Source: Haplodiscus bocki (Eukaryota). Taken from it: DNA of 64,000 bases. Location: assembly GCA_965655095.1 (NCBI GenBank), contig OZ296651.1, forward strand, positions 45,818,001-45,882,000. Direction: 5' to 3'. Below, piece by piece: positions 3,881 through 64,000 of the stretch. A program made the position numbers and the translations under genes. Numbering within the stretch: the stretch's first letter is position 1; each line of letters begins with the position of its first letter. Below the pieces are notes generated by a model. That model worked only from the letters and a program-made list of their open reading frames with translations, did not search any database and was not told the DNA's origin.

Positions 3881-3950
3881 AACAAGAGTAGCTGGGAACC
3901 GCGTGAAGTAGCCGCGCACGGCCCTAACAGGCATCGCGCGGGCAAGCGGT
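3881..3950 (-). other. candidate Helentron/HLE2-type 3' terminus (stem-loop followed by CTCTTGTT)
   Basis: CCGCGC (3912-3917) pairs with GCGCGG (3936-3941), with an inner GCC/GGC pairing, in otherwise AT-rich DNA. The minus strand then ends ...CAGCTACTCTTGTT at 3881. Confidence 0.35.
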
Positions 3951-4439
3951 AGATGGAGGTTGTGTTTGTGTTTCGGAAGTTGTGATAAACTTGTATTTAC
4001 TTGACTGGAAGAGCAAATTTCTATCAAACAGTACTGTGCTATTGGTTTACAGAAGCAATAAGTTTCACAATAACTTCTTTTTTTTCTGGGGTCCCTTCTG
4101 ATTGATGAATCGTAGTTTGGTTACAATTATTTAAATTCATTAGCAGAGATGAATTTCCCACCGTACCCTCTTTAGCGCAGGTTGACTTGCTGCTGCTTTC
4201 GAATTATAAAGAACAGTATACTCTTTGCATCAGAACAAAGCCTTCCCAAAACCCTTTGCCCACTCATACTTTAGTGGAGCAATAGACCTAGAATGTTTAG
4301 TGAAACCTAATTTCCTATTTGATTTTTTTTCAAGACAATTTCACCTGTACCAACTGAATGGAGAACGGAAGTATTGTGTTTCCTTCAAGGTATCTCAGAA
4401 ATAATGCTAGTAGTTCAACCGATGACCCCTGCTTGTTCC

Positions 4440-4680
4440 TAGCATTGAAAGTTGTGAACTTTTACCCTGGATTTTCTCAAAACGTATGCGTTCCGCTGTT
4501 TTCGTATAGTCACTGAAACCTGTTGGAAAATGTATAAAGCAAACCCCAATTTTTAAGATGAATCTCAGTTGTCAAGTACGGTCACTGCCCTAAACAGTCT
4601 CAAGAAGCCGTCGCCTTAATAATGAGGTGCGACAGACGTAAGTACTAACCAAAAGGTACAAATGCCCCACTTCACCAGGG
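4440..4680 (-). pseudogene. GIY-YIG (SLX1-like) endonuclease domain, C-terminal to the helicase
   Basis: ORF 4590..4916 ends GEVGHLYLLVSTYVCRTSLLRRRLLE, matching G-x-Y..., Y-V-(G)-x-T, RRL. After frameshifts come HLKNWGLL, TGF and ERIRFEK, resembling the W..GF..FE pattern of SLX1-type GIY-YIG domains. Confidence 0.65.
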
Positions 4681-4829
4681 GAAATTCTATGTTTGTGTGA
4701 GCGGCCAGAGGTATGCGAGGCTAAGTAAACAAAAGAGGTGACTGAATGCGGTGTTGACGAGTGTCTCGAGTAACTTTTCGCTTTTAAGAGTGCTTGAGAA
4801 GTTTTATTTGCCATTAAAGTTTTGTTTTC

Positions 4830-6030
4830 GTTAGCTAAAAATACTTTTCTGAGGTTTTGAGTTCGGCATCCTGAAACGCAGTTATTTCTTCTCCCGAAGA
4901 CAATATTCCCTCTCAATGCAATGATTTACCATTATAATTCTGCCAGTTGTTTCTCCCATGCCTTTATGAATAATCATTCCTATAAATTTTTCAACGGAAA
5001 TTGAGTTTGAAAAATGACCCTTCATGTTTTTTTAACAACCCAGATTGTTTTAGGTTCAACGTCAGAAAAATTTGTCTCGTAAAACTTGTATTATCTTTCC
5101 ATACACCAGGTAGAGCTGAAATAACCTCTATATTTTCATGCCAGTCAAATTTCGTGAACACACACATATGACACTGTGAAATGTCCAGTGATGGCATATT
5201 AACAGTTATTCTCAGCAATACTATGTTTTGCATTACTGTTAGGCTCAAAACAAATTCGATCGAAAGTGCTTTTTTTACGAATAACGGCAGCATTCAATTA
5301 CTGGTGCCGTTCATTTTTACAAATGTTGGTACTTTTGAATCGATTCCGCCAGATGTTCGTACTGTGTCGATTTGAGGATTAATTCCTTCCATTCCCTGCA
5401 AGTAGGCGAAAAAGTTGCACAGCGTCAACTGCACTGCTATCATAATAAAAAGAAGCATTTTGAAAGATGTTCTGCACAATTTTTTGATTTAGCAGTCTAA
5501 AATTTTGGGAACAGAAAACATTTTAAGAAACCTACGCTCGAAAAAGTCGGTCATGCTAACATGACTTCTCAAGACAAGTTTCTTCACGTTACTTGAAATA
5601 GCGGAAGTTGTCCAGATTAAGCGGGCCTAGGGATGCGGGAGTTGTTTGGGATTGCTTGTTCTGATGATGAGGATCCCGCTGAAGAGCGCACTTTCCCTCG
5701 ATTTCTGAAGTATGGAATCAATTGTAGCAAACTTCTCCGCGGAAACGATAGCAATTTCTTCAAAATGCAATACGTCAACTCTTTTAATGAAACTTTTTTT
5801 CAGCAGATCTTTTTTCAGTTTGTGTGCTTCTTTGTACGATACTATGGGTATTAAAGCTTTATAAAAACGGCAGAACAGAAAAGGTCGCGAATATGCATTC
5901 CCAAGAATTGCATAGCTAGTTCATTACTTGAGGATGTTACCATAAAAAATAAGCTGTGGTTCAGAGCATGAATTGTTTTTGCAATTGATTTCCAGCGGCC
6001 AGGCTTGCCTACGACAAACTGTTGTTTGAA
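4830..6030 (-). pseudogene. PIF1-family (SF1B) helicase domain of RepHel transposase
   Basis: Walker A-like FVVGKPGRWKS (5986-6018). Motif Ia-like VTSSSNELAMQFLGMHIRDLF. Motifs II-III VDVLHFEEIAIVSAEKFATIDSILQKSRESALFSGILIIRTSNPKQLP (from 5779). VLLRITVNM. QFPL/MIIHKGMGET (4948-5003). Order and spacing fit PIF1; many stops and frameshifts. Confidence 0.88.
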
Positions 6031-7099
6031 AAATACAGCGATGAAATGTTTTTACTCGTCAACGGTTTTCAGGGGTTACTTCAAAACAGCTGTTAGCTCA
6101 TCGTTGTATGACATTTGGCGATGGCGGAAGGTTATAATGAAGCGGCCTGCCCGACTTAGAATCAAGTACGTCATTGTTACTCGTTTTTGTCGTGTCGATT
6201 ACGAAATCATGAGTTTGCGATTTAGCATGGGAAAATTTTCGTTCCAGAAATTGCGACTCCTTTAGTACACTTCTGCAAGGCAGTATATAGAATGGTTAGC
6301 GTTTCAATGACCTTTTTGTAAGTTTCCATAGTGTTCAAAGAACTTTATCCGTCAACGATCGGACGATTCGCAGAACCGTCTGACACCAGACTATGAACTT
6401 TGAGCCTCAATTCGCAACGTTTTAAGATTGAACCTTTTTCTCTGTCCGTTATAGATTTGCATCTGAGACTGAACCAGACTTCTGAAAAGAAAGTCGAAGG
6501 CTTCCATCGTGGTACATATCCAAATCTGTTTAAAGCTTACGGAGTTCAAGCAACAAACTGATGAGGAAGTTTGGAATGTTCCTAGGCAGTGTGTTAGGGA
6601 AATTTACAGCAAGGATTTAGCCTCCGAGCCACGATCGTCCACGAATCTTGAAAAACTCAACACTGGATTCAGTTTCGGTTGTGTTGCAATGTGAACGTAT
6701 CTAGGCTTGGGAGTTTGGGGGTTCCTAGAAAGAATTTGGAAAAAAGCTTATGTAACAGAGGGCCTTAGGCGAATCATTTAACATGTGGTGTCAGAGCAAG
6801 AACTTGTTTCGATATTTTGATTACAATTATTCTTTTTTTTGTTCTTTCAACAGAAGATTTTGGAACTAAAAGCTTACTTCCCTAACGGAAAGTGAATCCG
6901 AACCTCTAAACACAATTTTTGACACCATATTCAGTGTTGGACAGGAATTGGTATATTTTCGTAACGTGTTCTGTTTTTTTTTGGGATCAAACGATTTTCA
7001 AGCTCAGCTTTTATAAACCTGATTCTTTTGTAGTCTCTATAACTTTGACCGGACGTTTCAACGAAGTGCTATTACCCCTGCCTTCGCTTGGCGCGACTT

Positions 7100-8620
7100 G
7101 GATTTTCAAGGGGCGTATTAACGTGAACAGAAGTGTATGTCCTAAATATGCTTTTCAATTTCAACATGCTTCAATTACAATCTGTTGATGGCAAAATGAG
7201 GCATTTTTCACAAGTGGTATTGATCTCGTTCTGAAAAACCTTTTCCGCACCTGCAATTTTCTTTTCTCAATTCGCTAACCGGGACAGTTTCAGAAGAGTT
7301 ACCATAAGTTTTTACTGTAGAGTGCGCCTGCATACAAGCTACGTAATTTGCTCGATACGTGGCAGATTTTATGGTGCCACAAATAATGAGTTCATGCTAC
7401 CTAGTATGCAAGAAAGTTCTTTGTCACCTTTGGAAAAAACGTTTCAATGAAGTCCGCCACGTAATTGTAGTTACCCGTCCTGGAATCATCGGCTACTTGA
7501 AAAGGAACTTCTAATAGATGAGCGAAATGCCACTTTCGTAAAATTTGCCATACGTCTTTAGAATGGGGCTTATCGATCATTTTGAAAGTGGTTTGAGTAC
7601 GGTTCGCAAATACCGAACCTACATATGCTTTTATTCTGTTATCGCAATGTTTGTCACGTCTGTAATTCCCCTCTTCCCTGAGTAAATTAATGTTGATTCG
7701 GTCAAAAAGTTCAGATCGTCAGCATTCTTCTTTCAGGTTACCGTCCTCTTTAAAGGACCCGGCGTTTCGATTTCAGTCAATGTAACAATTGGCGAAATGA
7801 CCCAAGTTGTGGTTTTTTTCTGATGTTTGCTCTGTTCTTTTCGTTTGTCCAAACAAATTTATGATGTTTTGGAGCGTTGACTTTCCATGTTTGAAACTCG
7901 AAGTGGAGAAAATTGTTTTTGATAGTTACCGGAAGTATATGTCTGGATATTTCTATATGCCTAACCAAAACAGTAGCGGCTTTTACCCACAACCCCATAC
8001 ACAGAAGGATATACTTTTCTATGCGGTTCATTCTCTGAGCTTGACACATTAGCAGTTTTTCGCTCGTTTAGCCAATTTAACGGTGCCATGTAAACCTGTA
8101 TGACTAGTTAAATGTTAAGGTCAGGAAAGAATTTGGCTTCCCACCTGATTGCTGCAGCCAGATTGATGGTTCTTCATTACTATTTTCTTCGTTCTTTCGT
8201 TCAATTTCGTGACGACTTTCGAAGTTTTTTGACCCGAGCTGTAAACCACTGTTCAGCACGAGGAAAGAATCCCAACACTTAACATGAAAGTTATGGAAAC
8301 AGTCAAAATGACATTGAATGAGTCATCGACCGCAAGATTTCAGGAATGATGATATCTCCGGTTATGGGAAACGATCTGCAAAGTTGAAGCCTTTTGCGAC
8401 AGATGAAGTCGCCAATGATGCTGCTGGAATCGCACCACAAATCGAAGTTTTTCACCGTTAGCTATTATATCGCAGGCAAAAACATTGCTTCAGGCTAAAT
8501 AGAAGGAACAATTTCGCCAGGACATTTAGCGATAAAAGATTGCAGGGAACGCCAATTTTCCTGATGTCAGTGATTTTTTCGCCCTATTCGGCACGGAACA
8601 TACTGCGTTCAAAACTACGT
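7100..8620 (-). pseudogene. HUH Rep (rolling-circle initiator) domain of RepHel transposase
   Basis: Pre-Rep segment LQSFIAKCPGEIVPSI*PEAMFLPAI..SICGAIP. Motif 1 PNSFLTLTFN (8107-8136). Motif 2 FEFQTWKVNAPKHHKFVW (7849-7902, in ORF 7777..8049; consensus EFQ...PHxH..W). Motif 3 ATYRANYVA (7337-7366; consensus YxxKY). Downstream VHVNTPLEN. Confidence 0.8.
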
Positions 8621-9350
8621 CGCTGCCCACTGTTTTCAAAACTTGCGCTGAATGTAGTTCAACTGCTTTACCACCACCATCCGTTTTCAAAACTTGAGTA
8701 CCTACGATTACTGCGGCATCAGTAGAAACATCAATTTCATTAGCTTCAACTTATCTTTCATCTTCCAAATCATCCTCTTTCATCGTCGGGAACTTTTGCA
8801 AAACCATAATTTCCCTATGCGTGATGTAAAAGTGTTTTTTTTTCATCTATCTCACTAAAGTGCTTCCTACACAGAACATTTTAGCATCCCTGAGAAGGAC
8901 ATCGCCTAGCTGATTTTTGACACGAGATCTCACCGAAGTGACAAAGAAACAGTTTCATGGGAAAGTCGCTATTTAACGGCAGTTTATGGGCATCGCAATT
9001 CACAAGATCCTGTCCTATTCAATTGCCAGCAAATCCAAAGCTTTTTTTCGGTCCAATTTGATCCAACCTTTTCATGAACACAACTATTTCATTCTTTTGC
9101 GGGGTAAGACCGATTTTTTCTTCATTTCTTAAGCTTACCAAAGGTGGATGTTGTGTTCCACCTTAGCTCAATCAATTTGTACCGAAAAAATGTTTCGAAA
9201 GAAGAATCGTCACTTTTGTATATCAATTTGATTGCGCCCAGTTTTTTTCAATGGAATGACTTGGAGAGAGATTGAAATGGTTCGTGGTACACTGAGTGAT
9301 TAAAGCAACAAAGTCCTGCTCATCCGCAATATCGCTCGAAACCAATCGGT
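8620..9350 (-). pseudogene. N-terminal part of the transposase: Cys/His cluster and acidic linker
   Basis: CQKSARRCPSQGC*NVLCRKHF (8857-8922) is followed by the acidic MKEDDLEDER*VEANEID, leading into the Rep region. The upstream limit is uncertain. Confidence 0.45.
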
Positions 9351-10329
9351 TGTCACCTTGTTCTCGACCTTGATATAATTGAGGAAAAGTAACCGATTAT
9401 GGGAGTGGAAAACCGTCGACTCGTCCAGTTCTCGTTCAAGTTAATCCTACTCCAAACTATCACTTCTAAACAAGCTGTTTTTTTGACCAACTATCTCAAT
9501 GAAACGAGAGATGTCTCCGTCAATAAGCGTTGTCCAGAAAACAGATGGCCACGCAAATTTAAAGCTTCAAGTTTTTCTAAAGGTTCGACGGGTTTTATTA
9601 CGCGCTACACCAGTGACAGTGGTAATAGTGCTAGTTGTCCTGGGGCTAAAAATGTACCGAGACCGCTCGTGACCCATGGCAGCAATAAGAACTGAAATTG
9701 CACCGTATACCATAGATTCGGTTTATTAGATTGTCGATAATGCCAAACAGAAATTGAAGTTTAAGCTGAACAATGATGAAGTTAGTCATTGTCGGAGTGG
9801 ACGCAATTTGTTTCAAGAACCATGATCATTGATTCCATCAAAAGTGTGTTTTATCACCTTTTTTTTGTATCTTTGGTCAGAGGATCCGTTTGTCAAAAGT
9901 TTTGCATTTCCGTTCACCAGATATGTGTGGTAACTAACAATACAACTTTTCGGCCACTTCAAGAGTCGATCGTACTATTAATCCTGAATGTTGCGGATGC
10001 AGAAATGTATCAGGGTGAGCATAGTAAGCTGATCGAACAAGCACAATTTGCAACTCAAGAAGCTGTTGTCATTTCACCAAATCAAGAACTCAGTACGTTG
10101 AAGAAAATTGTCAGTAGTGTAGAATGGAGAAAGTGTGCTTGACAATTGTCACAAGTATTTTAGTACAGTGGGGATGGAAAACGTAAATAAATTAGCATAC
10201 TGCTGTTCGAATGGTGTTTAGGGGTACTTAACTCTCTGAAGACCAGTTGAGAGTAAAACATTGTGACTCAAAATCATATCCATTCAGCTTTACAGACTCT
10301 CTGAAAAATGAATTGTACTTGCGGAAAAT

Positions 10330-11239
10330 TTTGGTCACAACTGTAGATGTCAATTGGCGGAGTGCCAAACTGCTCAGATGCACATGAACTCCCCCAACGA
10401 TGAGTTAACTGCTCAACTTCGAACCTCCATCTGGGAAGTTGTCTGTAACATGTGTACTGCCGAGGACCATTGTTGATTTTTTCAATGCATGAAACACTTG
10501 ATCATTCATAGTTCGATGGACAACTCCCAATACAAGTACAGTACCGTAGTACCTCAGCTCCTGGCTTGGGGTCAAGATGTCAAAAGTATTGTGGGTAATC
10601 GTTTGCCCCAACGCATTCTTCTTTTTTCCGGTTTTTTCTCCCTCGTCATGATCTCAAACTTCGAATATCTTTTTTTAGCGAATGTCGGACAATATTCTGG
10701 GTAAATCCGAAGCTCTCACCCCATGGACACAGACATTTTCACACGGGTTAATAACGCTATATCTGGAAAGGAAGTCGCCTACAAATATAGTTTCTTGATC
10801 AGGTTTTGTGGAGAGATGGAGGCTGTTTCCGCCTGTCTTGACTTTGAACTTCGAATATCGTTATAAAGGATTGTCTGACAGTATAGTGGCGAGATTTTCA
10901 GCTCTCACCCCTGGAAAATAGATAAAACCACAATGGCCAATAACCCTTTTTCTGAGAAGAAAGCCGCCTTTAATTACTTTCTCGTTACCAGGTGGCGTGG
11001 ATAAAATCAAATCCAATTGAAAGCCAATTGAGTTGAAAGAACATTGCTTTTTCTGAAAACGGCCGATTCGTTACTTTTGTCGTTTTTTTCAACTATCATG
11101 GAAGAATAACGGAGAAGCTCGGTCCGAGGAGGCTCTATCAAAGAAGTGAATTTTTGTAGAACAGTTTCGGTTGATGTTTTGCGCCTTTTTATCAATGATG
11201 TAACCGATGAGTAGGAGGGTTGTCAATGCTTAGCGCCAT
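10330..11239 (-). pseudogene. SGNH/GDSL-hydrolase-fold protein (possibly non-catalytic, OSK-like), with a duplicated N-terminal half
   Basis: Block I-like IFVGDFLSR, block II-like CVHGVRASDL / FPGVRAENL, block III-like VKTGGNSL, then TVLVLGVVHR and block V-like IVGGVHVHLS (DHGHLS at ~13160, DHEHLS in array copies). Probable ATG at 11239 (MALSIDNPPTHRL). Confidence 0.7.
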
Positions 11240-12139
11240 TTTCTTTTCGAATTAAAACTGTGTATATACGTTGAAGTAGTTGATACTTACCCATGCAAAC
11301 GTTATGATACAATGTCGAATTGAAGACGGAATTGATAACCATAATCGAATTGCTGAAAAGACAAATATTACAGGTTTGATCTAACTAAATTCCTACGGAA
11401 GGCACCAAGAAACGGTAAACTGACGGTACTTCCTCAAAGTCTTTTGACAAATGTGTTAGTAAAGTGTTGGAAACCAAAAATTCCGGTAACCTGATTGGAA
11501 ATGGACAAAGTGTGACATAAAAGTCAGCGGAGTCAAAAAGTATGTCTTTCGTTTACTTCAACTAAAATCTGTTGCTCCATGGGCGTCAGATTAACATAAT
11601 TGTGTATAGTCAGCCGAACATTTTAGAACTGTTGCTACGTATCCGTGAAGTCTTCACCAAAGGAATTTATGGCCAGTTAATGTATGAAAACTATGGAAAA
11701 GCGTTTTGAATCAAGTCACGTTTCGTGGCACCGAAACTCACAAACTCTCGAAGGTTTCCCCCTAAATCTATTACACTGCTGAAAATTACTGTACTAGGGT
11801 TGTCTGTTTTACGATTATGAACGAACTGATGATTTTAGCTGTGAAAGTTGCTCTTCTATAGCTTTTGATACCGAAAACTCTAAAGTCCCAGATTTTGCCG
11901 CAAAAACTTCATTTTTCCCACGTTCTATATACATTTTGGTCCTGACTTTTTTTACCAGTAGGTTGGCTGTAGAAAAGCGCTCTAACGTGATTCCGCCGCG
12001 ACTTGTGCGTGCCGAGATGCGGGACAATTTTTTTGTGAGTCACGTTTTTGACATGAGTTACCAAATTCAAAAACCTTTTGTCAACGTCAGGTTGTCGAAG
12101 ACGTGCGTTCTCTTAACATTTCTCTCTTTAGATGTTGTA

Positions 12140-12920
12140 CTATCCCCATGGTACCTTCTGTTTATCTATTTGTATGGAGTGAATTGGACTTTTGCTCAGA
12201 ATTGCCAAAGATTGGAAGTAGGCCAGCATGTTCGGCAAGTAATTTAGGCTATTGTGAATTGTTTCCGATCTCAGCCAACAATTCGGACTAGTTTTGTGAA
12301 TTGCTTTCCAACTGCTGGGAGTGTCGTTTTTCTTTGTTTTTTGTTTCATTTTCTTTATCAAGTAAGCGATTAATTGGACTTAAGTTTGTTATTGATTCCT
12401 TTTCCGTTCTTTGAGAGTCCATCAAATAAAATTTCCTCTGTAAGCGTTTTCAAGAAAACTGGAGGCGACACAAGTTTAAAAACAGATTTTACTGTTTGAA
12501 GGATTGGACGGCTTTGAATACGGGCTGTTCAAGTGAGAGACAGTTATAATGCTAGATGTTTTGCAGGTGCCAAGTTGCTGTCGACTGACAATGTTGATTC
12601 CGTCTTTGGATTCAAAATGCAATGAGGACAGAGTTGATTTTTTGGATCAACAGTAGAAGGGCCTTTCATTGGGACAATTTTGTTATCAGAAATTTGGGGG
12701 GGGGGGACGAAAAAATGGAGACTTCAACTACATCTGGGCATGGAACTGGGTCATCGGTTGCGTCACACATTAAACATTGACCGGAAGCAGAGAAGTCCAC
12801 CAAATGCAAGAGACTTCTCACGACGAGGGCGCTTGTGGCCCATGATAGCAATAAAATTAGAACGCAGCGCATGCTCTAGATTGGGTTTAAAGAAACGTTA
12901 ATAATGCCAAAGAAGGCCAC
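12140..12920 (-). pseudogene. Cys-rich protein of unknown function (progenitor-type copy)
   Basis: ORFs 12666..12872 (GQCLMCDATDDPVPCPDV) and 12140..12361 (CWLRSETIHNSLNY...DKQK). The protein words are conserved in the paralogous P and Q modules of the array. Confidence 0.55.
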
Positions 12921-13368
12921 TTTCGTAGTGAACGCTTCAGAAAAAGTTAAAGTTTAATCCTCATAAAAATGATGTTAGTCTTTTTTGAGCTTGACCCATT
13001 TCTGTTTCGGGAACCGTGATTATCGATTCCTGCGAAATTGGGTTTCTCACTTATTTTTTTCTATCTTTGATCGGATAACGTGTTTTCAAATTTTCGCAAT
13101 ACCATTTTCCAAATGTGCGTGGGATCTGATCTCAATTCGCGGGTTCCAAACGTGCTCAGGTGCCCATGATCTCTCACAACGATGAGTTTAGTGCTGAACA
13201 TCGAACCCTCAACCAGAAAATTGTTCATACCGTATGCACTATTGCGAGGACCATTGTTGAGTTTTTTGGTATGAAAATACACTTACAGTTATGTAGTAAT
13301 TCAGTTCATGGCTCGGCGCCAAGATGTCAATGTAATTGTGGGTAATCGTTCCGCCAACGAATTCTTCT

Positions 13369-16300
13369 TTGTCGTAGACCTGCCTTATCTGACTCTCGTC
13401 TGGTTTTGTACTCTCCCTGATCATCCTTCTGTTTATCCATTTGTGTGGATGAGATTGGACCTGTGCTAAAAGTTGCTGAAACTTGCAATTTGGGCAACGT
13501 ATTGAGCCATTAATCTAGGCTTTTCTGAATTGTTTCTTTACTCTGAGCCAACAATGGTGGTCGTTTCTGTGAATTCCTTTCCCTCTGCAAAGCATCTTGT
13601 TTTCAACTGTTCCCTGGGTTTTTCTTTCTGCTCAACTAGGCCAATGTTTAGACTGAGTTTTTCAACTGATTCCTACTGTTTTCCGTTCAATGAAAGTCCA
13701 TGGAATAATTTTTTGTCCGAAGGCGTTTTTCCAGATAACTGATGCCCCCGCAATTTTGGGAAACGCGATTTTTTTGGATGACGAGTTCGACGCTTTGGAA
13801 TACGCGCTGTACAAGTGACTGCGTAATATTGCTGGATGTTATGCTGGTGGCGAATTGCTCTCGACTAACAATGTTGGTACCGTCTATGGGTTGAAAATGC
13901 GGTGAGAAAGACACTGTTGATTTTTTACAACAATTGTAACAGGGCTTTTCAGTGCTAAAATAGTTTTTACATCTTGGGGGATGACAAAATTGAGACTAAA
14001 AATACATCTGGACACGGAACAGGGTCATCGCTTCCTTCACACAATAAACATTGACCGGAAGCGGAAAAGTATTGCCAGCAATGACAACTGAAAACGCAGA
14101 GCGTGCCATATTTTTCATTAAAAGAGTCCTTAATAATGCCAAAGGAGGCCACTGTTGTGGTTGACCTTTCAGAAAAACGTGACGTTTGAGCCTACTATAA
14201 ATGATTTGTCTTTTTTGAGGTGTTGTACTTTCCGCATGTTACCTTCTGTTTATCTAATTGTATTGAGTGAATTGGACTTTTGCTCAAAATTGCCAAAGAC
14301 TGGAAAGTACGCCAGCATGTTCAGCAAGTAATACGTGAAGCCGCCGTGACACGCGCGTGGTGAGATACTGGACGATTTGCTTGAAAATCGTCAGGTTTTG
14401 TAGTGTCCGCGGTCGTCCGTCCGCTTACCTCTGCAAACCATTTGTTTTCGTCTTTTTCCTGATTTTTCTTCCTGCTCAACTAGGGCAATAATTATACTGA
14501 ATTTTTCTAATAACTCCTACTGTTTTCCGTTCAATGAAAGTCCATGGAATAAATATTCGTCTGATAGCTTTGTTCCAGATAACTGATGGCCACGCAATAT
14601 CGAAAACCGCGAGTTTTTGGATGAAGGGTTGAACGCTTTGGAATTTGCGCTTGGCAAGTGAGAGACAGTTATAAAGTTAGATGTTCTGCGGGTGCCAAGT
14701 TGCTGTCGACTAACAATGTTGATAACTTGTAAGGATTCAAAATGCAATGGAGAAGACACAGTTTACTTTCTGGATCAACGGTAAATGGCCCTTTCTTTGG
14801 GACAATTTTGTTATCGGAAATTTGGGGGGGGGGACGAAAAAATGGAGACTTCAACTACATCTGGGCATGGAACTGGGTCATCGTTTGCGTCACATAATAA
14901 ACATTTACCGGAGGCAGAAAAGTCTCCCACATGCCCTATACTTCTACCGGCGGCGCTCGTGGCCCCTGATGGAAATAACAACTGAACTGAAAACGCAGGG
15001 TGTGCCGTAGATTGGATTTGAAGACTAGTTAATAATGCCAAAAGGGCTTTTTTTAATGTGGACTTTCCGGGTCAAGTTAAAGTTTAAGCTTAATCATAGT
15101 GATTGCGTTCTTTTTCGAAGTGGTTCCACTTTTGTTTCAAGAACCATCATCATCGATTTCCTCAAAATTGGGTTTATCACTCGTTGTTTTGTGTCTTGAT
15201 CAGATGAACCTGTTTTCAAACATCTGTGATTCGATTTTTCATTCAAGTGTGGGAACTAACAATACAGCCTATCGGCCACTATAACTGTCGACCGCACTAG
15301 TATATCCTATATATTGAAGATGCGAAACCCTGTCGGTTTGAGCAGAGTAAACTGATAGAACAAGAGGATTTTTCCACCCCAGAAGCTGTTATCAAACCAA
15401 GAACTCAATATGCTGAAAAAATATCAATATTTGGATCTGCAAAAAATGTTCTCGACACTTGTAACAGTTATTTTAGTACAGTTCAGAGAAGCCGTAATGA
15501 AATTTGCTTTCACGCTTTTTAACTGGTGTTCAGAGGTACTCAACTCTCCAAATACCAGCTGAAAGTCAAACATTGAAAGTCACGCTAGGAGCACAGATAT
15601 TAACCGACGAGTAGGCAAACGGTTAATTTTGGGCGCCATTTGGTTTTGAAATGAAACTGTGTAGACGTGTATGTAGTTGATACTTACCCATGCAAAACTT
15701 ATCTCAGTTCTGTAATTAAGAAGGCCTAAACCATAATCGCAGTAATTTAGTTCAAATAGACAATACAGATAGAAAAGTTTTACAAAAAGCACAGATACAC
15801 GCAAAACTGAGGATTTTTGCTTAAAGTCTGAAAATCACTTTTTGGCATGTGTAGATAAGTTATTGGAAAGCAAAGACTCCGGTAACGTGATTTGCAATTG
15901 ACAAAGTGAGGCATAAGTCTCAGCGGGTCAAAAGCTATGTTTTTCATTCACTTCAACTGAAATTTGTCGCTCCATAGGCGTCAAATTGTACATAGTGAAC
16001 GCGTATGGGCAGCCAAGAATTTTATTGCTGTTGTTAGGTATCCATAAGGTCTCCACCAAACGAAAATAAGGCCAGTTAGTGTACCAAAAACATGAAAAAC
16101 TGTTTTGAATCGACTCACTTTTCGTGGCCGAAGAAATTACAAAGTTTCGAAAGTTTTCCCTAACTCCAATTAAAATGTCACAAATTACTGCTTTTTGTTT
16201 GCTTGGCTGTGGCGATGTTGAACGCCTTGATTTTGTTCTCTATGGAAAATGCTTTTTTATAGCGTTTCATGTCAAATTTTGGAAGTCCTAGATTTTGCGG

Positions 16301-19300
16301 TAAAAGTTGGTCATCATTTTTTTTCGAACGTTCTACATTCTTCTTTGGTCCTGATCCTTTTTTAATCTGTACTTTTGCTGCAAATAGGAGCTCTTACGTG
16401 AAACAACCGCGACACGCTTGAAAATCACCTTGCTTGAAGATCATTCTCGACTTTATTTACAAAATTCAGAATATCCTTGGTCAATGTCAGGTTGTCGTAG
16501 ACCTGCCTTATCTGACTCATTTCTCTCGTCTGGTTTTGTACTCTCCCTGATCATCCTTCTGTTTATCCATTTGTGTGGATGAGATTGGACATGTGCTAAA
16601 AACTGCTGAAACTTGGAATTTGCGCAACGTATTGAGCCATTAATCTAGGCTTTTCTGAATCGTTTCTTTACTCTGAGCCAAAAATGGTGTCAGTTTCTGT
16701 GAATTCCTTTCCCTCTGCAAAGCATCTTGTTTTCATCTGTTCCCTGCTTTTTTCTTTCTGCTCAACTAGGCCAATGTTTATACTGAATTTTTCAACTGAT
16801 TCCTACTGTTTTCCGTTCAATGAAAGTACATGGAATAATTTTTTGTCCGAAGGCGTTTTTCCAGATAACTGATGCCCCCGCAATTTTGAGAAACGCGATT
16901 TTTTTGGATGACGAGTTCGACGCTTTGCAATCCGCGCTGTACAAGTGACAGCGTAATATTGCTGGATGTTATGCTGGTGGCGAATTGCTGTCGGCTAACA
17001 AGGTTGGTACCCTCTATGGATTCAAAATGCGGTGAGAAAGACAAAGTTGAATTTTTACAACAATTGTAACAGAGCTTTTTAGTGCTAGAATAGTCTTTAC
17101 ATCTTGGGGGATGACAAAATTGAGACTAAAAATGCTTCTGGACACGGAACAGGGTCATCGTTTGCTTCACACAATAAACATTGACCGGAAGCGGATAAGT
17201 ATCGCCAGCAATAACAACTGAAAACGCAGAGCATGCCGTATTTTTCATTAAAAGAGTCCTTAATAATGCCAAAGGAGGCCACTGTTGTGGTTGACCTTTC
17301 AGAAAAACTTGAAGTTTGAGCCTACTATAAATGATTTGTCTTTTTTGAGGTGTTGTACTATCCGCATGTTACCTTCTGTTTATCTAATTGTATTGAGTGA
17401 ATTGGACTTTTGCTCAAAATTGCCAAAGACTGGAAAGTACGCCAGCATGTTCAGCAAGTAATACGTGAAGCCGCCGTGACACGCTTGAAAATCATCTTGC
17501 TTGAAGATCATTCTCGACTTTATTTACAAAATTCAGAATATCCTTGGTCAAGGTCAGGTTGTCATAGACCTGCCTTATCTGACTCATTTCTCTCGTCTGG
17601 TTTTGTACTCTCCCTGATCATCCTTCTGTTTATCCATTTGTGTGGATGAGATTGGACCTGTGCTAAAAACTGGTGAAACTTGGAATTTGCGCAACGTATT
17701 GAGCCATTAATCTAGGCTTTTCTGAATCGTTTCTTTCCTCTGAGCCAACAATGGTGGCCGTTTCTGTGAATTCCTTTCCCTCTGCAAAGCATATTGTTTT
17801 CAACTGTTCCCTGGTTTTTTCCTTCTGCTCAACTAGGCCAATGTTTAGACTGAGTTTTTCAACTGATTCCTACTGTTTTCGGTTCAATAAAAGTCCATGG
17901 AATAAATTTTCGTCTGATAGCTTTGTTCCAGATAACTGATGGCCACGCAATTTCGAGAAACGCGATTTTATTGAATGACGAGTTGGACGCTTTGGAATAC
18001 CCGCTGTACAAGTGACAGAGCGTAATAATGCTGGATGTTATGCTGGTGGCGAATTGCTGTCGACTAACAATGTTGGTACCGTCTATGGGTTGAAAATGCG
18101 GTGAGAAAGACACTGTTGATTTTTTACAACAATTGTAACAGGGCTTTTCAGTGCTAAGATAGTTTTGACATCTTGGGGGATGACAAAATTGAGACTGAAA
18201 ATACATCTGGACACGGAACAAGGTCATCGCTTCCTTCACACAATAAACATTGACCGGAAGCGGATAAGTATCGCCAGCAATAACAACTGAAAACGCAGAG
18301 CATGACGTATTTTTCATTAAAAGAGTCCTTAATAATGCCAAAGGAGGCCACTGTTGTGGTTGACCTTTCAGAAAAACTTGAAGTTTGAGCCTACTATAAA
18401 TGATTTGTCTTTTTTGAGGTGTTGTACTATCCGCATGTTACCTTCTGTTTATCTAATTGTATTGAGTGAATTCGACTTTTGCTCAAAATTGCCAAAGACT
18501 GGAAAGTACGCCAGCATGTTCAGCAAGTAATACGTGAAGCCGCCGTGACACGCGCGTGGTGAGATACTGGACGATTTGCTTGAAAATCGTCAGGTTTTGT
18601 AGTGTCCGCGGTCGTCCGTCCGTTTACCTCTGCAAACCATTTGTTTTCGTCTTTTTCCTGATTTTTCTTCCTGCTCAACTAGGGCAATAATTATACTGAA
18701 TTTTTCTAATAACTCCTACTGTTTTCCGTTCAATGAAAGTCCATGGAATAAATATTCGTCTGATAGCTTTGTTCCAGATAACTGATGGCCACGCAATATC
18801 GAAAACCGCGAGTTTTTGGATGAAGGGTTGAACGCTTTGGAATTTGCGCTTGGCAAGTGAGAGACAGTTATAAAGTTAGATGTTCTGCGGGTGCCAAGTT
18901 GCTGTCGACTAACAATGTTGATAACTTGTAAGGATTCAAAATGCAATGGAGAAGACACAGTTTACTTTCTGGATCAACGGTAAATGGCCCTTTCTTTGGG
19001 ACAATTTTGTTATCGGAAATTTGGGGGGGGGGGGGGGACGAAAAAATGGAGACTTCAACTACATCTGGGCATGGAACTGGGTCATCGTTTGCGTCACATA
19101 ATAAACATTTACCGGAGGCAGAAAAGTCTCCCACATGCCCTATACTTCTACCGGCGGCGCTCGTGGCCCCTGATGGAAATAACAACTGAACTGAAAACGC
19201 AGGGTGTGCCGTAGATTGGATTTGAAGACTAGTTAATAATGCCAAAAGGGCTTTTTTTAATGTGGACTTTCCGGGTCAAGTTAAAGTTTAAGCTTAATCA

Positions 19301-34300: not shown

Positions 34301-36414
34301 GAAAATCGTCAGGTTTTGTAGTGTCCGCGGTCGTCCGTCCGTTTACCTCTGCAAACCATCTTGTTTTCGTCTTTTTCCTGATTTTTCTTCCTGCTCAACT
34401 AGGGCAATAATTATACTGAATTTTTATACTAACTCCTACTGTTTTCCGTTCAATGAAAGTCCATGGAATAAATTTTCGTCTGATAGCTTTGTTCCAGATA
34501 ACTGATGGCCACGCAATATCGAAAACCGCGAGTTTTTGGATGTAGGGTTGAACGCTTTGGAATTTGCGCTTGGCAAGTGAGAGACAGTTATAAAGTTAGA
34601 TGTTCTGCGGGTGCCAAGTTGCTGTCGACAAACAATGTTGATAACTTGTAAAGGATTCAAAATGCAATGGATAAGACACAGTTGACTTTCTGGATCAACG
34701 GTAAATGGCCCTTTCTTTGGGACAATTTTGTTATCGGAAATTTGGGGGGGGGGGGACGAAAAAATGGAGACTTCAACTACATCTGGGCATGGAACTGGGT
34801 CATCGTTTGCGTCACATAATAAACATTTACCGGAGGCAGAAAAGTCTCCCACATGCCCTATACTTCTACCGGCGGCGCTCGTGACCCATGATGGAAATAA
34901 CAACTGAACTGAGAACGCAGGGTGTGCCGTAGATTGGATTTGAAGACTAGTTAATAATGCCAAAAGGGCTTTTTTTAATGTGGACTTTCCGGGTCAAGTT
35001 AAAGTTTAAGCTTAATAATAGTGGTTGCGTTCTTTTTCGAAGTGGTTCCACTTTTGTTTCAAGAACCATCATCATCGATTTCCTCAAAATTGGGTTTATC
35101 ACTCGTTTTGTGTCTTGATCAGATGAACCTGTTTTCAAACATCTGTGATTCGATTTTTCATTCAAGTGTGGGAACTAACAATAAAGCCTATCGGCCACTA
35201 TAACTGTCGACCGCACTAGTATATCCTATATATTGAAGATGCGAAACCCTGTCGGTTTGAGCAGAGTATTGATAGAACAAGAACTGATAGAACAAGAGGA
35301 TTTTTCCACCCCAGAAGCTGTTATCAAACCAAGAACTCAATATGCTGAAAAAATATCAATATTTGGATCTGCAAAAATTGGTCTCGACACTTGTAACAGT
35401 TATTTTAGTACAGTTCAGAGAAACGTAAAGAATTTTGCTTTCACGCTTTTTAACTGGTGTTCAGAGGTACTCAACTCTCCAAATACCAGCTGAAAGCCAA
35501 ACATTGTAAATCACGCTAGGAGCACAGATATTAACCGACGAGTAGGCAAACGGTCAATTTTGGGCGACATTTTGTTTTGAAATGAAACTGTGTAGACTTG
35601 CATGTAGTTGATACTTACCCATGCAAAACTTATCTCAGTTCTGAAATTAAGAAGGCCTAAACCATAATCGCAGTAATTTAGTTCAAATAGACAATACAGA
35701 TAGAAAAGTTTTACAAAAAGCACAGATACACGCAAAACTGAGGACTTTTGCTTAAAGTCTGAAAATCACTTTTTGGCATGTGTAGATAAGTTATTGGAAA
35801 CCAATGACTCCGGTAACGTGATTTGCAATTGACAAAGTGAGGCATAAGTCTCAGCGGGTCAAAAGCTATGTTTTTCATTCACTTCAACTGAAATTTGTCG
35901 CTCCATAGGCGTCACATTGTACATATTGAACGCGTATGGGCAGCCGAGGATTTTAATGCTGTTGTTAGGTATCCATAAGGTCTCCACCAAACGAAAATAA
36001 GGCCAGTTAGTGTACCAAAAACATGAAAAACTGTTTTGAATCGACTCACTTTTCGTGGCCGAAGAAATTACAAAGTTTCGAAAGTTTTCCCTAACTCCAA
36101 TTAAAATGTCACAAATTACTGTTTTTTGCTTGGCTGTGGCGATGTTGAACGAACTGATTTTGTTGTCTATGGAAAATGCTTTTTTATAGCGTTTCATGTC
36201 AAATTTCGGAAGTCCCAGATTTTGCGGTAAAAGTTGGTCATTTTTTTTCGAACGTTCTACATTCTTCTTTGGTCCTGATCCTTTTTTAATCTGCACGTTT
36301 GCAGCAAATAGGTGCTCATACGTGAAACCACCGCGACACGCTTGAAAATCACCTTGCTTGAAGATCATTCTCGACTTTATTTACAAAATTCAGAATATCC
36401 TTGGTCAAGGTCAG
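13369..36414. repeat. mixed sub-array: five ~3.13-kb units (P-Q-R-S), one 1067-bp, two 1953-bp and one 2437-bp unit
   Basis: Successive marker spacings are 3130, 1067, 3129, 1953, 1953, 3120, 2437, 3128, 3137. Long units carry the poly-G Q module and the R module (ORF MIAFFFEVV... at 15099, 19303, 26333, 31892, 35021). Confidence 0.93.
35859..36368 (-). pseudogene. longest open copy (169 aa) of the S-module reading frame, unknown function
   Basis: The same frame (..NIATAKQKTVICDILIGVRENF..WYTNWPYFRLVETLWIPNN..VEVNEKHSF) is open for 112-169 aa in about eleven units. Related words occur in the divergent copy near 11550-12030. Confidence 0.5.
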
Positions 36415-57400: not shown

Positions 57401-60400
57401 GAACACCGGTAAAATCAAATTGGTAAAAAAATCTATTTCTGGGGAGGAACTCACATACAAATTGCTTGTTTTTTAATCAGGTTCGGTGGTAGTGCCGACT
57501 GTTTTCCCTGTCAGAATTCTGAACATCGATTTTTCTGAGGGAATGTCTGGTAATATAGTTTGGAGATCTTCCGCCCTCACGCTAGGAACACAGATAATAG
57601 CCGATGAGTTGGCAAACAGTCAATTCTTGGCGCCATTTTGTTTTGGATTGAAACTGTGTAGACGTGCGTGTAGTTGATACTTACCCATGCAAAATTTATT
57701 TCAGTGTTGAAATTATGACGGCCTAAACCATAATTGCAGTACTTTAGTTCAAATAGACAATACAGATAGAAAAGTTTTACAAAAAGCACAGATACACGCA
57801 AAACTGAGGACTTCTGCTTAAAGTCTGAAAATCTTTTTTTTTGGCATGTGTAGATAAGTTTTTGGAAACCAATGACCCCTGTAACGTGATTTGCTCTTGG
57901 CAAAGTGAGACATACGTCTCAACGGAGTCAAAAGCTATGTTTTTCATTCACTTCAACTGAAATTTGTCGCTTCATAAGTGTCACATTGTACGTAGTGAAC
58001 GTGTATAGGCAGCCGAGCATTTTAATGTTGTTAGGTATCCAAAAAGTCTCCACCAAACGAAAATACGGCCAGTTAGTGTACGAAAAACATGAAAAACTGT
58101 TTTGAATCAACTCACTTTTCTTGGGCGGAAAGATTACAAAGTTCTGAAAGTTTTCCCTAACTCTAATTAAAATGTCGCAAATAACTGTATTTTGCTTGAC
58201 TGTGGCGATTATGAACGAATTGATGTTGTTCTCTATGGAAAATGTTTTCTCGCGTTTCATGCCAAATTTCGAAAGTCCCAGATTTTGCGGTAAAAGTTGG
58301 TCATCTTTTTTTTCCAACGTTGTACTTTGTTCTTTCGTCCTGATCCTTTTTTAATCTGTATTTTTGCAGCAAATAGGAGCTCTTACGTGGAACCACTGCG
58401 ACACTGTTGAAAATCACATTGCTTGAAGGTCACTTCTCGACTTTATTTACCAAATTCAGAATATCATTGATCAAGGTCAGGTTGTCGTAGAACTGCGTTA
58501 TCTGACTCAATTCTCTCGTCTGGTTTTGTACTCTCCCTGATCATCCTTCTGTTTATCCTTTTGTGTGGATGATATTGGACCTGTGCTAAAAATTGCTGAA
58601 AGTTGGAATTTGGGCAACGTTTTGAGCCATTAATCTAGGTTTTTCTGAATCGTTTCTTTCCTCTGAGCCAACAATGGTGGCCGTTTCTGTGAATTCCTTT
58701 CCCTCTGCAAAGCATATTGTTTTCAACTGTTCCCTGGTTTTTTCTTTCTACTCAACTAGGCCAATGTTTAGACTTAATTTTTCAACTGATTCCTACTGTT
58801 TTCCGTTCAATGAAAGTCCATGGAATAATTCTTTGTCCGAAGGCGTTTTTCCAGATAACTGATGCCCCCGCAATTTTGAGAAACGCGATTTTATTGGATG
58901 ACGAGTTGGACGCTTTGGAATACGCGCTGTACAAGTGACGGATTGTAATAATGATGGATGTTATGCTGGAGGCGGATTGCTGTCGACTAACAAGGTTGGT
59001 ACCCTCTATGGATTAAAAATGCGGTAAGAAAGACACAGTTGAATTTTTACAGCAATTGTAACGGAGCTTTTCAGTGCTAAAATAGTCTTTACATCTTGGG
59101 GGATGACAAAATTGAGACTAAAAATGCATCTGGACACGGAGCAGGGTCATCGCTTGCTTCAGGCAATAAACATTGACCGGAAGCGGATAAGTCTCGCCAG
59201 CAATAACAACTGAAAACGCAGAGCATGCCGTATTTTTTTATTAAAATAATACTTAATAAAGCCAAAGGAGGCCACTGTTGTAGTTGACCTTTCAGAAAAA
59301 CTTGAAGTTTGAGCCTACTATAAATGATGTCTTTTTTGAGGTGGACCTCTTTGTGTTTCAAGTACCACGATCATTGATTCCTTCAAAATTGAGTTTCTCA
59401 CTCAATAATTTGTATCTGTGATCGGATATCGCTTTTTCGAAACTTAGCAATTCCTTTTTTCGAAGCATGCGTGGGATCTGATGTCATTTCGCGGGTTCCA
59501 AACGTGCTGAGGTGCTCATGATCTCTCCCAACGATGAGTTTACTGCTCAATTCCGAACCGTCACGCAAGAAGTGCACTGCCGAGGACCATTGAGTTTTCT
59601 ATCGCTTTTAACTCGTGATCATTTAGTGTTCGATGGGTGGCTCCTCAAACAAATACACTACCTTAATAAGTCAGTTACCGGCTTGGCCCCAGGATGTCAA
59701 AAGTATTGTGGTTAGTCGTTCACCCAACGCATTCTTCGTTGTTCTGGTTCAGTTTCTCCCGTGTCGTGATTTTAAACTTCGAATGTTTTTAGAAGGGATT
59801 ATCTGACAATATACTGGCGAGATCTTTAGTTCACACCCCAGGAACACCGGTAATATCAAATTGGTAAAAAAAATCTATTTCTGGGGAGGAACTCACTTAC
59901 AAATTGCTTGTTTCTTAAACAGGTTCGGTGGTAGTACCGACTGTTTTCCCTGTCAGAATTATGAACATCGATTTTTCTGAGGGAATGTATGGTACTATAC
60001 TTTGGAGATCTTCAGCCCTCACGCTAGGAACACAGATAATAGCCGATGAGTACGCAAACAGGCAATTCTTGGCGCCATTTTGTTTTGAAATGAAACTGTG
60101 TAGACGTGCATGTAGTTGATACTTACCCATACAAAATTTATTTCAGTGTTGAAATTAAGACGACCTAAACCATAATCGCAGTTTTTAGTTCAAATAGACA
60201 ATACAGATAGAAAAGTTTTACAAGAAGTACAGATTAACGCAAAACTGATGAATTCTGCTTAAAGTCTGAAAATCACTTTTTGGCATGTGTAGATAAGTTT
60301 TTGGAAACCAATAACCCCGTTAACGTGATTTGAAATTGACAAAGTGAGGCATAAGTCTCAACGGAGTCAAAAGCTACGTTTTTCATTCTCTTCAACTGAA

Positions 60401-61260
60401 ATTTTTCGCTTCATAAGCGTCACATTGTACATAGTGAATGTGTATGGGCAGCCGAGCTTTTTTATGTTGTTAGGTATCCAAAAAGTCTCCACCAAACGAA
60501 AATACGGCCAGTTAGTGTACGAAAAACATGAAAAACTGTTTTGAATCAACTCACTTTTCTTGGGCGGAAAGATTACAAAGTTCTGAAAGCTTTCCCTAAC
60601 TCTAATTAAAATGTCGCAAATAACTGTATTTTGCTTGACTGTGGCGATTATGAACGAATTGATGTTGTTCTCTATGGAAAATGTTTTCTCGCGTTTCATG
60701 CCAAATTTCGAAAGTCCCAGATATTGCGGTAAAAGTTGGTCATCTTTTTCCAACGTTCTACATTCTTCTTTGGTCCTGATCCTTTTTTAAATTGTACTTC
60801 TGCAGCAAATAGGCCCTCTTACATAAAACCACCGAAACACGCATGAAAATCACTTTGCCTGAAAATCACATTTCAACCTTATTTACTGAATTCAGAATAT
60901 AATTGGTCAAGGTCAGGTTATCTTTGAGCTGCGTTATCTGACTCATTTCTTTCGTCGGGTTTTGAACTATCCCTGATCATCCTTCTGTTTATCTATTTTT
61001 GTGGATGAATTTGGACCTGTGCTAGAAACTGCTAAAACTTGGAAAATAGGCCAACGTATTGAGCCATTAATCTCGGCTTTTCTGAATCGTTTCGTTCCTC
61101 CGAGCCAACGATGGTAGCTTTTTCTGTGAATTCCTTACCCTCTGCAAGGCATCTTGTTTTCAATAGTTCCCTGGTTTTTTCTTCCTGCTCAACTAGGCCA
61201 ATATTTAGACTGAAGTTTTCAACTGTTTTTCTGTTCAATGAAAGTCCATAGAATAAATTT

Positions 61261-61704
61261 CTATCCGAAGGCGTTTTTCCAGATAACTGAAGGCCCCGCA
61301 CTTTCGAGAAACGCGATTTCATTGGATGAGGTGTTGGACGCTTTAGAATACGCGCTGTACAAGTGACAGAGAGTAAAAATGCTGGATGTTATGCTGGTGC
61401 CGAATTGCTGTCGACGAACAATGTTGGTACCGTCTATGGATTCAAAATGCTGTGGGAAAGACACAGTTGAATTTTTACAACAGTTGTAACAGGGCTTTTC
61501 AGTGCTGAAATAGTTTTTATACATCTTGAGGGTTGACAAAATTGAGACTAAAAATACATCTGGACACGGAACAGGGTCATCGCTTCCTTCACAAAATAAA
61601 CATTGACCGGAAGCGGATAAGTCTCGCCAGCAATGACAACTGAAAACGCAGCGCATGGTGTATTTTTCATTAAAAGAATCCTTAATAATGCCAAAGGAGG
61701 CCAC
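61261..61704 (-). pseudogene. most intact copy (147 aa) of the Cys-rich P-module ORF
   Basis: Contains CxxxCxC, CxxC, PCP and CxxCC. It reads through the position where most other copies stop at ...SPKM*. The start is GTG and there is a premature stop after KNAFG. Confidence 0.5.
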
Positions 61705-63556
61705 TGTTTTAGTGGACCTTTGAGAAAAACTTGAAAATTGAGCCTACTAGAAATGATTTAAGTCTTTTTTTTTACCTATGTTTGTTTAAAGTACCACGAT
61801 CATCGATTCCCTCGAAATTGTGTTTCTCACTCAATATTTTGTATCTGTGATCGGATATCGCCTTTTCAAAACTTTGCAATTCCTTTTTTCGAAGTATGCG
61901 TGGGATCTGATGTCATTTCGCGGGTTCCAAACGTGCTGAGGTGCTCATGATCTCTCCCAACGATGAGTTTACTGCTCAATTCCGAACCGTCACGCAAGAA
62001 GTTGTTTTTACCATGTGCACTGTGCCGAGGACCATTGAGTTTTCTATCGCTTGGAACTCGTGACCTCTTATTGTTCGATGGGCGACTCCCTAAACAAATT
62101 CACTGCTTTAATAAGTCAGTTACCCGCCTGGCGCCAAGTTGTCAAAAGTATTGTGGTTAGTCGTGCACCCAACGCGTTCCTCGTTGTTCCGGTTTAGTTT
62201 CTTCCCTGTCGTGATTTTAAACTCCGAATGCATTTAGAAGGGAATATCTGACAATATACTGGCGAGATCTTTAGTTCACACCCAGGAACACCGGTAATAT
62301 CAAATTGGTAAAAAAAATCTATTTCTGGGGAGGAACTCACTTACAAATTGCTTGTTTCTTAAACAGGTTCGGTGGTAGTGCCGACAGTTTTCCCTGTCAG
62401 AATTTTGAACATCGATCTTACCCATACAAAATTTATTTCAGTGTTGAAATTAAGACGGCCTAAACCATAATCGCAGTACTTTAGTTCAAATAGACAATAC
62501 AGATAGAAAAGTTTTACAAGAAGTACAGATTAACGCAAAACTGATGAATTCTGCTTAAAGTCTGAAAATCACTTTTTGGCATGTGTAGATAAGTTTTTGG
62601 AAACCAATAACCCCGTTAACGTGATTTGAAATTGACAAAGTGAGGCATAAGTCTCAACGGAGTCAAAAGCTACGTTTTTCATTCTCTTCAACTGAAATTT
62701 TTCGCTTCATAAGCGTCACATTGTACATAGTGAATGTGTATGGGCAGCCGAGCTTTTTTATGTTGTTAGGTATCCAAAAAGTCTCCACCAAACGAAAATA
62801 CGGCCAGTTAGTGTACGAAAAACATGAAAAACTGTTTTGAATCAACTCACTTTTCTTGGGCGGAAAGATTACAAAGTTCTGAAAGCTTTCCCTAACTCTA
62901 ATTAAAATGTCGCAAATAACTGTATTTTGCTTGACTGTGGCGATTATGAACGAATTGATGTTGTTCTCTATGGAAAATGTTTTCTCGCGTTTCATGCCAA
63001 ATTTCGAAAGTCCCAGATATTGCGGTAAAAGTTGGTCATCTTTTTCCAACGTTCTACATTCTTCTTTGGTCCTGATCCTTTTTTAAATTGTACTTCTGCA
63101 GCAAATAGGCCCTCTTACATAAAACCACCGAAACACGCATGAAAATCACTTTGCCTGAAAATCACATTTCAACCTTATTTACTGAATTCAGAATATAATT
63201 GGTCAAGGTCAGGTTATCTTTGAGCTGCGTTATCTGACTCATTTCTTTCGTCGGGTTTTGAACTATCCCTGATCATCCTTCTGTTTATCTATTTTTGTGG
63301 ATGAATTTGGACCTGTGCTAGAAACTGCTAAAACTTGGAAAATAGGCCAACGTATTGAGCCATTAATCTCGGCTTTTCTGAATCGTTTCGTTCCTCCGAG
63401 CCAACGATGGTAGCTTTTTCTGTGAATTCCTTACCCTCTGCAAGGCATCTTGTTTTCAATAGTTCCCTGGTTTTTTCTTCCTGCTCAACTAGGCCAATAT
63501 TTAGACTGAAGTTTTCAACTGTTTTTCTGTTCAATGAAAGTCCATAGAATAAATTT

Positions 63557-64000
63557 CTATCCGAAGGCGTTTTTCCAGATAACTGAAGGCCCCGCACTTT
63601 CGAGAAACGCGATTTCATTGGATGAGGTGTTGGACGCTTTAGAATACGCGCTGTACAAGTGACAGAGAGTAAAAATGCTGGATGTTATGCTGGTGCCGAA
63701 TTGCTGTCGACGAACAATGTTGGTACCGTCTATGGATTCAAAATGCTGTGGGAAAGACACAGTTGAATTTTTACAACAGTTGTAACAGGGCTTTTCAGTG
63801 CTGAAATAGTTTTTATACATCTTGAGGGTTGACAAAATTGAGACTAAAAATACATCTGGACACGGAACAGGGTCATCGCTTCCTTCACAAAATAAACATT
63901 GACCGGAAGCGGATAAGTCTCGCCAGCAATGACAACTGAAAACGCAGCGCATGGTGTATTTTTCATTAAAAGAATCCTTAATAATGCCAAAGGAGGCCAC
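63557..64000 (-). pseudogene. duplicate of the 147-aa Cys-rich ORF
   Basis: Translation is identical to 61261..61704, offset by 2296 bp. Confidence 0.5.

Follow-up and report, generated by a model that had tools for sequence, protein, structure and literature searches.

A 64,000-nucleotide stretch of Haplodiscus bocki DNA (contig OZ296651.1, positions 45,818,001 to 45,882,000 of the forward strand; hereafter the window) contains a decayed minus-strand Helitron-like element, which encodes a Rep-helicase (RepHel) transposase with a GIY-YIG nuclease domain, and next to it a satellite of multi-kilobase units that has grown in place from the adjoining sequence. These two points of the initial annotation of this DNA stand. 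The repeat, however, is not the separate accessory cassette that had been proposed, as the unit extends through the upstream region of the element into the first ~150 transposase codons. We observed the composition of the array, the neutral decay of its units, and a stepwise history, and we lean toward the view that the transposase seeded the first front copy and that recombination then enlarged the array. A block (9495-13370) lies between transposase and array, and the units fall into four old lineages, of which C0 adjoins RepHel, Cb lies within the block, and C1 and C2 occur in the array. The features are as follows.

3888-3944, minus strand: candidate single 3' end, a GC-rich hairpin (3905-3944) and then, ~14 nt on, CTAC/T (3888-3891)
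4476-4673, minus strand: decayed C-terminal GIY-YIG nuclease domain, SLX1-like in intact relatives
4879-6102, minus strand: decayed PIF1-family helicase (family hidden Markov model, HMM, E 6e-24; tblastn E 5e-25)
7075-8590, minus strand: decayed Rep (HUH-Y2) nuclease region (tblastn E 8e-21 and 1e-16; HMM E 3e-16)
8824-9018, minus strand: conserved Cys/His motif of the RepHel family (P0002 residues 805-865; HMM E 3.6e-12)
9489-9750, minus strand: RepHel N-terminal Cys-rich segment of the transposase-bearing copy, lineage C0 (HMM E 0.015 at 9575-9489)
9751-10270, minus strand: spacer Y, which separates the SGNH-like frame from the RepHel start and is complete in C0 and in five array copies
10273-10860, minus strand: SGNH/GDSL-like pseudogene S, a motif-level call, with 14 array copies
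10925-12436, minus strand: segment Z, with 19-21 array copies
12437-13370, minus strand: second old unit, lineage Cb, made up of the N-terminus of RepHel, a shortened Y, and the terminal part of S
13369-35531, minus strand: proximal array, mixed 1.95-, 2.44-, 3.1-, and 4.2-kb units from the old lineages C1 and C2
35532-64000, minus strand: distal array, eleven 2.38-2.46-kb units plus a partial one, continuing beyond the window

The transposase and its repeated start

The decayed minus-strand Rep-PIF1 transposase described initially was confirmed, since it is collinear with intact Rep-PIF1-GIY-YIG proteins of 2.2-2.8k aa; with the intact relative P0051 as query, tblastn returned collinear segments from 9015 to 4885, with E values down to 5e-25. 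A Rep domain with an HUH motif and two catalytic tyrosines and a PIF1 helicase fused downstream of it, two hallmarks of Helitron-like elements, are both found here. The HUH-position motif is at about 7860-7900 and the Y2 motif at about 7345-7357; both align with intact relatives and are decayed in the window, where 13 stops occur in 976 aligned codons, in addition to frame changes. A phmmer search with the 308-codon frame at 4994-5917 matched 50 proteins at E<=0.001, one of which is the window's own sequence; P0006, an LRR protein among these 50 matches, was treated as a false positive. The GIY-YIG domain, which had also been assigned to RepHel, was recovered as a remnant at the expected place: of 852 frames, 4476-4673 was the top match of the family HMM (independent E value, 0.01), and hhalign gave an E value of 8e-4 at a probability of 24%, which is weak yet falls at the expected position. 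The family profile matched SLX1 structures with E values of 2e-8 to 3e-5. General searches recovered little. Pfam gave no match in any of the six minus-strand frames when long read-through frames of 3801-13500 were searched, and for 29 short open reading frames (ORFs) PIF1 came up no better than at E 0.097. Word-seeded protein searches retrieved nothing, PDB sequence searches with window fragments retrieved nothing relevant, and plasmid tblastn retrieved generic PIF1 matches only.

It had been stated that the transposase is never repeated. The Rep/helicase core is indeed single copy and is not repeated in the array, but the N-terminal Cys-rich domain lies within the repeat unit and is present in 24 array copies and once in the block. 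What had been taken for a separate Cys-rich accessory gene is the N-terminus of the RepHel frame, so that the transposase start is repeated 24 times in the array. The domain in question comprises ~350 aa of P0002 and is common to 8 of the 10 other long relatives. Its profile matched 63808-63572 and 61512-61276 (E 1.2e-5) as well as 18155-17925 (E 1e-4), and hhalign aligned the array frame with columns 45-117 of the 2374 in the family profile (E 8e-4). When frameshifts were allowed for, the 61-kb copy scored 37 bits (shuffle maximum, 21) and the RepHel-proximal copy 30 bits (shuffle maximum, 17). The block copy and the 42-kb copy, each scored singly in this way, did no better than their own shuffles, and the joint score of the block and 61-kb copies was 48.9 bits, compared with 19 ± 2.7 for shuffles. 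In the distal array, a 160-codon open frame (61261-61743) spans the RepHel N-terminus. The C0 segment is without ~245 bp that the repeats keep and matches 12441-12559 and 12824-12911 at the DNA level; C0 is also ~400 codons shorter than P0002 between the N-terminal motif and 9015.

Composition and stepwise history of the array

The array of more than 50 kb that had been claimed is real. In the self-comparison it spans 13369-64000, with all copies in one orientation, and runs off the right end of the window; no inverted copies were found in the window (0 minus-strand self matches). The reported number of 21 copies is correct for one marker, which occurs 21 times within 13369-64000, whereas the modules differ in abundance: the top part of Z was counted 21 times, the lower part of Z 19 times, the Cys-rich segment 24 times, S 14 times, and long Y 5 times. 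Twelve unit spacings measure 2.38-2.46 kb, three 3.12-3.14 kb, and two 1.95 kb, and the rest are a composite of 4.2 kb and two incomplete units at the ends. Tandem Repeats Finder, run with a period limit of 500, found no repeats. With respect to composition, 97.8% of the array was covered by matches to the block in a sensitive BLAST search against 9301-13400, and three types of gap were tested, of which those of 111 bp and 165 bp likewise map to the block and one of 48 bp does not.

The block itself had been described as single. We found, however, that it is internally tandem, as the result of an old duplication whose copies are 67-79% identical: 10346-10624 corresponds to 13128-13370, 9751-9935 to 12944-13127, and 9524-9747 to 12441-12911. 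The old unit is ~2.9 kb long and contains, in minus-strand order, Z, S, Y, and the RepHel start. The block thus consists of about 1.3 old repeat units at the edge of the array, which are the oldest ones, and is no unique template. C0 is 65-69% alike to the other lineages, and Cb, C1, and C2 are 72-77% alike among themselves; in segment Z every array copy is 68-70% alike to the block, and the array copies are mutually 87-100% alike. Cb and C1, the main array unit, have in common a 410-bp deletion with identical breakpoints (9935/10346 = 13127/13128 = 44750/44751), which indicates descent from one already damaged unit. The mismatches between block and array are spread evenly over codon positions (for example, 43/43/39) and are accompanied by many frameshifting indels, which fits neutral decay after duplication. 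We considered and rejected the idea that the old units are distinct active subfamilies under selection, as there was no consistent third-position excess; a slight drop at the second position was all that appeared in two comparisons with C2.

The more recent history is recorded within the array. Five neighbor pairs, supported by bootstrap values of 98-100%, are 96.8-99.4% identical, indicating that recent growth was local. The unit at 29 kb groups in the tree with the units at 60-62 kb, a sign of exchange over longer distances.

Several further features of the units were observed. The two most distal units (60040-64000) are the most divergent, being 87-91% alike to most others and 94% to the 29-kb unit; in Z the two are ~100% alike, and they retain the longest open RepHel N-terminal frame. 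Better preserved units may lie farther along the array. A 125-bp piece at 12118-12243 is 88-90% identical in six array copies (for example, 14204-14332) within surroundings of 68-77%, which suggests that it was converted later or that the block served as the source of a copied patch. Inside the block, 10630-10812 and 10821-11001 form an old tandem duplication of 190 bp, 67% identical, that overlaps the start of S.

The SGNH-fold gene and the unknown ORFs of the initial annotation gave no significant database match. For S, motifs resembling blocks I, II, III, and V of the SGNH family were recognized by eye in the expected order. In the atlas, the sole row listed for S was a GDSL esterase cluster at 0.76, under the lead threshold. 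Searches of S against Pfam, NCBIfam, PHROGs, PDB, and protein and plasmid databases returned no match, and a single-sequence structure model was unusable at a pLDDT (predicted local distance difference test) of 30. The RVT clusters retrieved for Z from the atlas, at 0.77, are at chance level and uninformative. By eye, Z had seemed a candidate for the rest of the RepHel N-terminal domain, but three frameshift-aware tests gave scores within those of shuffles and left this candidate unsupported; in one of these tests, two controls with real sequences scored 4-5 bits above their own shuffles, and the shuffle null thus runs low. Since Z was not matched to the N-terminal domain, either end of Z may be the unit boundary.

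Origin of the array

The minus strand carries a dead Helitron-like Rep-PIF1-GIY-YIG element whose one candidate 3' end is at about 3890. Tandem front pieces of ~2.9 kb (Z, the SGNH-like S, spacer Y, and the first ~150 transposase codons) lie upstream of it, and we propose that they accumulated in three steps. First, the transposase would have made an extra front copy, either by rolling-circle copying of a terminator-less template or by self-insertion, which would result in the known layout of many 5' ends and one 3' end. Second, dead copies were probably duplicated again and lost pieces, giving rise to the four old lineages, which are 65-77% alike. Third, unequal recombination would have expanded two inner lineages into the satellite of at least 50 kb with units 87-100% alike, leaving the edge units out of homogenization. 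Later growth by recombination among dead copies is indicated by the lack of codon-position bias, the 410-bp deletion in common, and the neighbors that are 97-99% identical. No function is implied for the array.

The arrangement of the element agrees with seeding by the transposase, in that the 5' part is repeated and the 3' part is unrepeated. Helitron-like elements have a subterminal hairpin at the 3' end; the hairpin at 3905-3944 lies ~530 bp past the GIY-YIG remnant and is the strongest 40-nt minus-strand fold in 3600-17600 (-11.2 kcal/mol); the CTAC/T that follows it is one mismatch away from the CTRR/T of HLE1 elements, which have a 5' TC, a 3' CTRR, and an A/T target, and no similar sequence was found in the four unit regions tested. 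A number of observations weigh against this reading. The hairpin has a z score of -1.43, which is not significant compared with shuffles, and the 3' end is therefore a candidate only. None of the candidate junctions had a recognizable 5' terminus, whether TC or an inverted repeat able to pair with the 3' end, and the unit boundary is not pinned. A search for the short, asymmetric terminal inverted repeats of HLE2 elements returned only chance-level matches of 7-8 nt, in four of six regions of decayed sequence. For the N-terminal frame of the array, the hhalign probability was only 24%, and the pairwise BLASTP comparison of this frame with P0002 alone was not significant. Finally, C0 (65-69%) is farther from the other lineages than these are from each other (72-77%), which misfits a single concatemer event.

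Because no 5' terminus was recognized and the divergence is staged, we retain as a possible, if doubtful, alternative that the host duplicated a ~2.9-kb stretch spanning the start of a dead RepHel and neighboring DNA. The transposase would then be uninvolved, and S and Z would not be cargo but, for example, the remnant of an esterase ORF1 from a long interspersed element (LINE) of the CR1/L2 type, or host sequence. The junction without an element terminus, the stepwise divergence, and the shared deletion are all compatible with such a duplication; furthermore, SGNH domains are typical of CR1 retrotransposons (PMC4021074), and an SGNH domain was present in none of the 27 hit proteins scanned. 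However, S is on the same strand as RepHel and only ~500 bp upstream of its start, and the amplification of the front with sparing of the 3' end corresponds to a bias reported for Helitrons (PMC12628747). Pfam detected no reverse-transcriptase remnant in 3801-13500, which counts weakly against the duplication since the Pfam scans also missed RepHel. More generally, no PolB, capsid, integrase, or reverse transcriptase was found near the block in scans that are insensitive on such decayed DNA.

Seeding by the transposase followed by recombination was also compared with the model of the initial annotation, in which a multi-gene element has an accessory cassette of its own (SGNH gene, Cys-rich gene, unknown ORFs) and this cassette alone gave rise to the satellite, starting from a single template block. 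The derivation of the array from the block and the single-copy Rep and helicase core agree with that view, and S and Z could be real cargo; it is nevertheless improbable, as the block is itself repeated and the Cys-rich piece corresponds to the transposase N-terminus present in P0002 and in 8 of the 10 other long relatives. That the length of the array was inflated by assembly error is very unlikely: two neighboring pairs are about 99-100% identical, which speaks for it, but most units differ by 2-13%, the tree has supported structure, and several unit types exist.

Within one window are found the parent element, edge units that were left behind, intermediates of composite structure, and distal units that were homogenized. 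The locus is thus a single-locus record of a transposon becoming a macrosatellite, in which seeding by the transposase is separable from later recombination by the host.

Relatives and known systems

Among 20 relatives scanned, 19 had PIF1, 11 a weak Helitron_like_N match, and 11 a GIY-YIG domain, which was located at the C-terminal end in 7 of the 9 relatives of 2190 aa or more. The closest relatives are P0002 and P0051. Two of the 20 clusters were looked up, and the relatives named are from the hagfish Myxine glutinosa and the amphipod Hyalella azteca. DUF6570, a marker of HLE2 (PMC11417382), was absent from all 20 and all 7 proteins scanned, and there was no C-terminal apurinic/apyrimidinic endonuclease as in Helentrons (no Exo_endo_phos in 27 proteins), the C-terminus being occupied by GIY-YIG. 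The similarity to the Helraiser transposase (PDB 7lcc) and canonical HLE1 RepHel proteins is concentrated in the PIF1 helicase (E 5e-19), the only stretch that passed the family-profile comparison with Helraiser, and the HUH and Y2 motifs are common to both. In contrast to Helraiser (1496 aa), the relatives have 2.2-2.8k aa, an N-terminal domain of their own, and a C-terminal GIY-YIG.

Helitron-like elements with features of this kind have been described. HelenSM92, an HLE2 family of Sphagnum, captured a GIY-YIG (PMC11417382); it may differ from the present lineage, in which the domain is fused to the RepHel C-terminus in the long relatives. This moss family is the one GIY-YIG in a Helitron-like element that we found in print, and the supplementary tables of PMC11417382 may list more. 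No description was found of a Helitron clade with a C-terminally fused SLX1-like domain in literature that comprised neither most subscription journals nor Repbase, and the fused lineage is the least described part of the system. The texim genes of fish Helitrons encode SGNH hydrolases and, like S, lie upstream of the Helitron coding region; as described in PMC4021074, they have introns and are expressed, whereas S is a short dead frame.

The layout of the array is already known from plants and fungi, and what is unusual here is the large size of the units and the little-described transposon lineage. Helitron arrays that combine several 5' ends with only one 3' end were reported in 27 plant genomes, where they are explained by rolling-circle copying of terminator-less templates (Xiong et al. 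2016, via the review PMC12628747). FoHeli of Fusarium also has multiple 5' termini, and its short versions are attributed to self-insertion (PMC5148889); Helraiser generates circles as well as new 3' ends (PMC4778049). The H. bocki array resembles the plant arrays, which have several to hundreds of repeats, and FoHeli in its repeated front, single candidate 3' end, and decayed truncated copies. It differs from both in that the units are 2-4 kb long and reach into the transposase frame, the duplications of FoHeli being typically <200 bp, and in that its length probably stems mostly from later recombination among dead copies. Helitron-derived tandem arrays in animals have been reported from Hydractinia subtelomeres and Xenopus (PMC11934779, PMC12001565); these consist of 372-bp internal units, or of 121-1996-nt monomers in 2-7 copies, in contrast to the at least 21 multi-kilobase units tied to one RepHel found here.

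The intact Rep-PIF1-GIY-YIG(SLX1-like) relatives provide a more useful lead than the layout of the array. P0002 and P0051-P0055 form one cluster at 90% identity, with six intact members of 2455-2468 aa on large contigs, which suggests recent activity in some host; as these proteins are intact and closely similar, what the additional nuclease does can be tested. A motif presumably related to ribosome-skipping 2A sequences is located near the N-terminus of P0005 (residues 71-78) and P0043 (residues 47-54), 2 of the 21 relatives over 900 aa. It was not found on the minus strand of the window, and none of the literature matches listed links 2A to Helitrons. P0005 additionally has a weak OTU match. 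The one related locus recovered by the contig scan is a Rep-region relative (L001, 105-2507) on a 2.5-kb contig of a bacterial metagenome-assembled genome; the contig lies wholly inside the Rep region, with no flank, and is most likely eukaryotic DNA binned into that genome.

We tentatively raise a broader proposal, which we regard as possible rather than probable. The element may belong to a major clade of Helitrons that has not been described and falls outside both HLE1 and HLE2, with its own ~350-aa N-terminal domain and a fused C-terminal SLX1-like nuclease. An esterase gene would be a constant upstream component of this clade, giving a layout like the ORF1-ORF2 of LINEs, with a 2A-like start in two relatives. 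Such a clade would be widespread in animals, with some members intact, and its 5' part would seed multi-kilobase satellites. If so, the fused structure-specific nuclease might resolve branched rolling-circle intermediates.

Some minor observations concern the left flank and the window as a whole. A perfect 18-bp inverted match with little extension connects the flank (1994-2011) with a site just upstream of S (10880-10897). Short minus-strand remnants that resemble tRNA (B-box-like) were seen by eye at ~1780-1830 and ~3150-3205 and are possibly debris of short interspersed elements; ARAGORN reported no tRNA, and Rfam gave no match in 1-24000. On the plus strand, a GC-rich open stretch of 75 codons (1977-2204), which has no Pfam match, ends near a GT splice-like site. 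The observed/expected CpG ratio was 0.87-1.01 in the flank, RepHel, block, and array; this lack of depletion in old repeats suggests a host with little DNA methylation.

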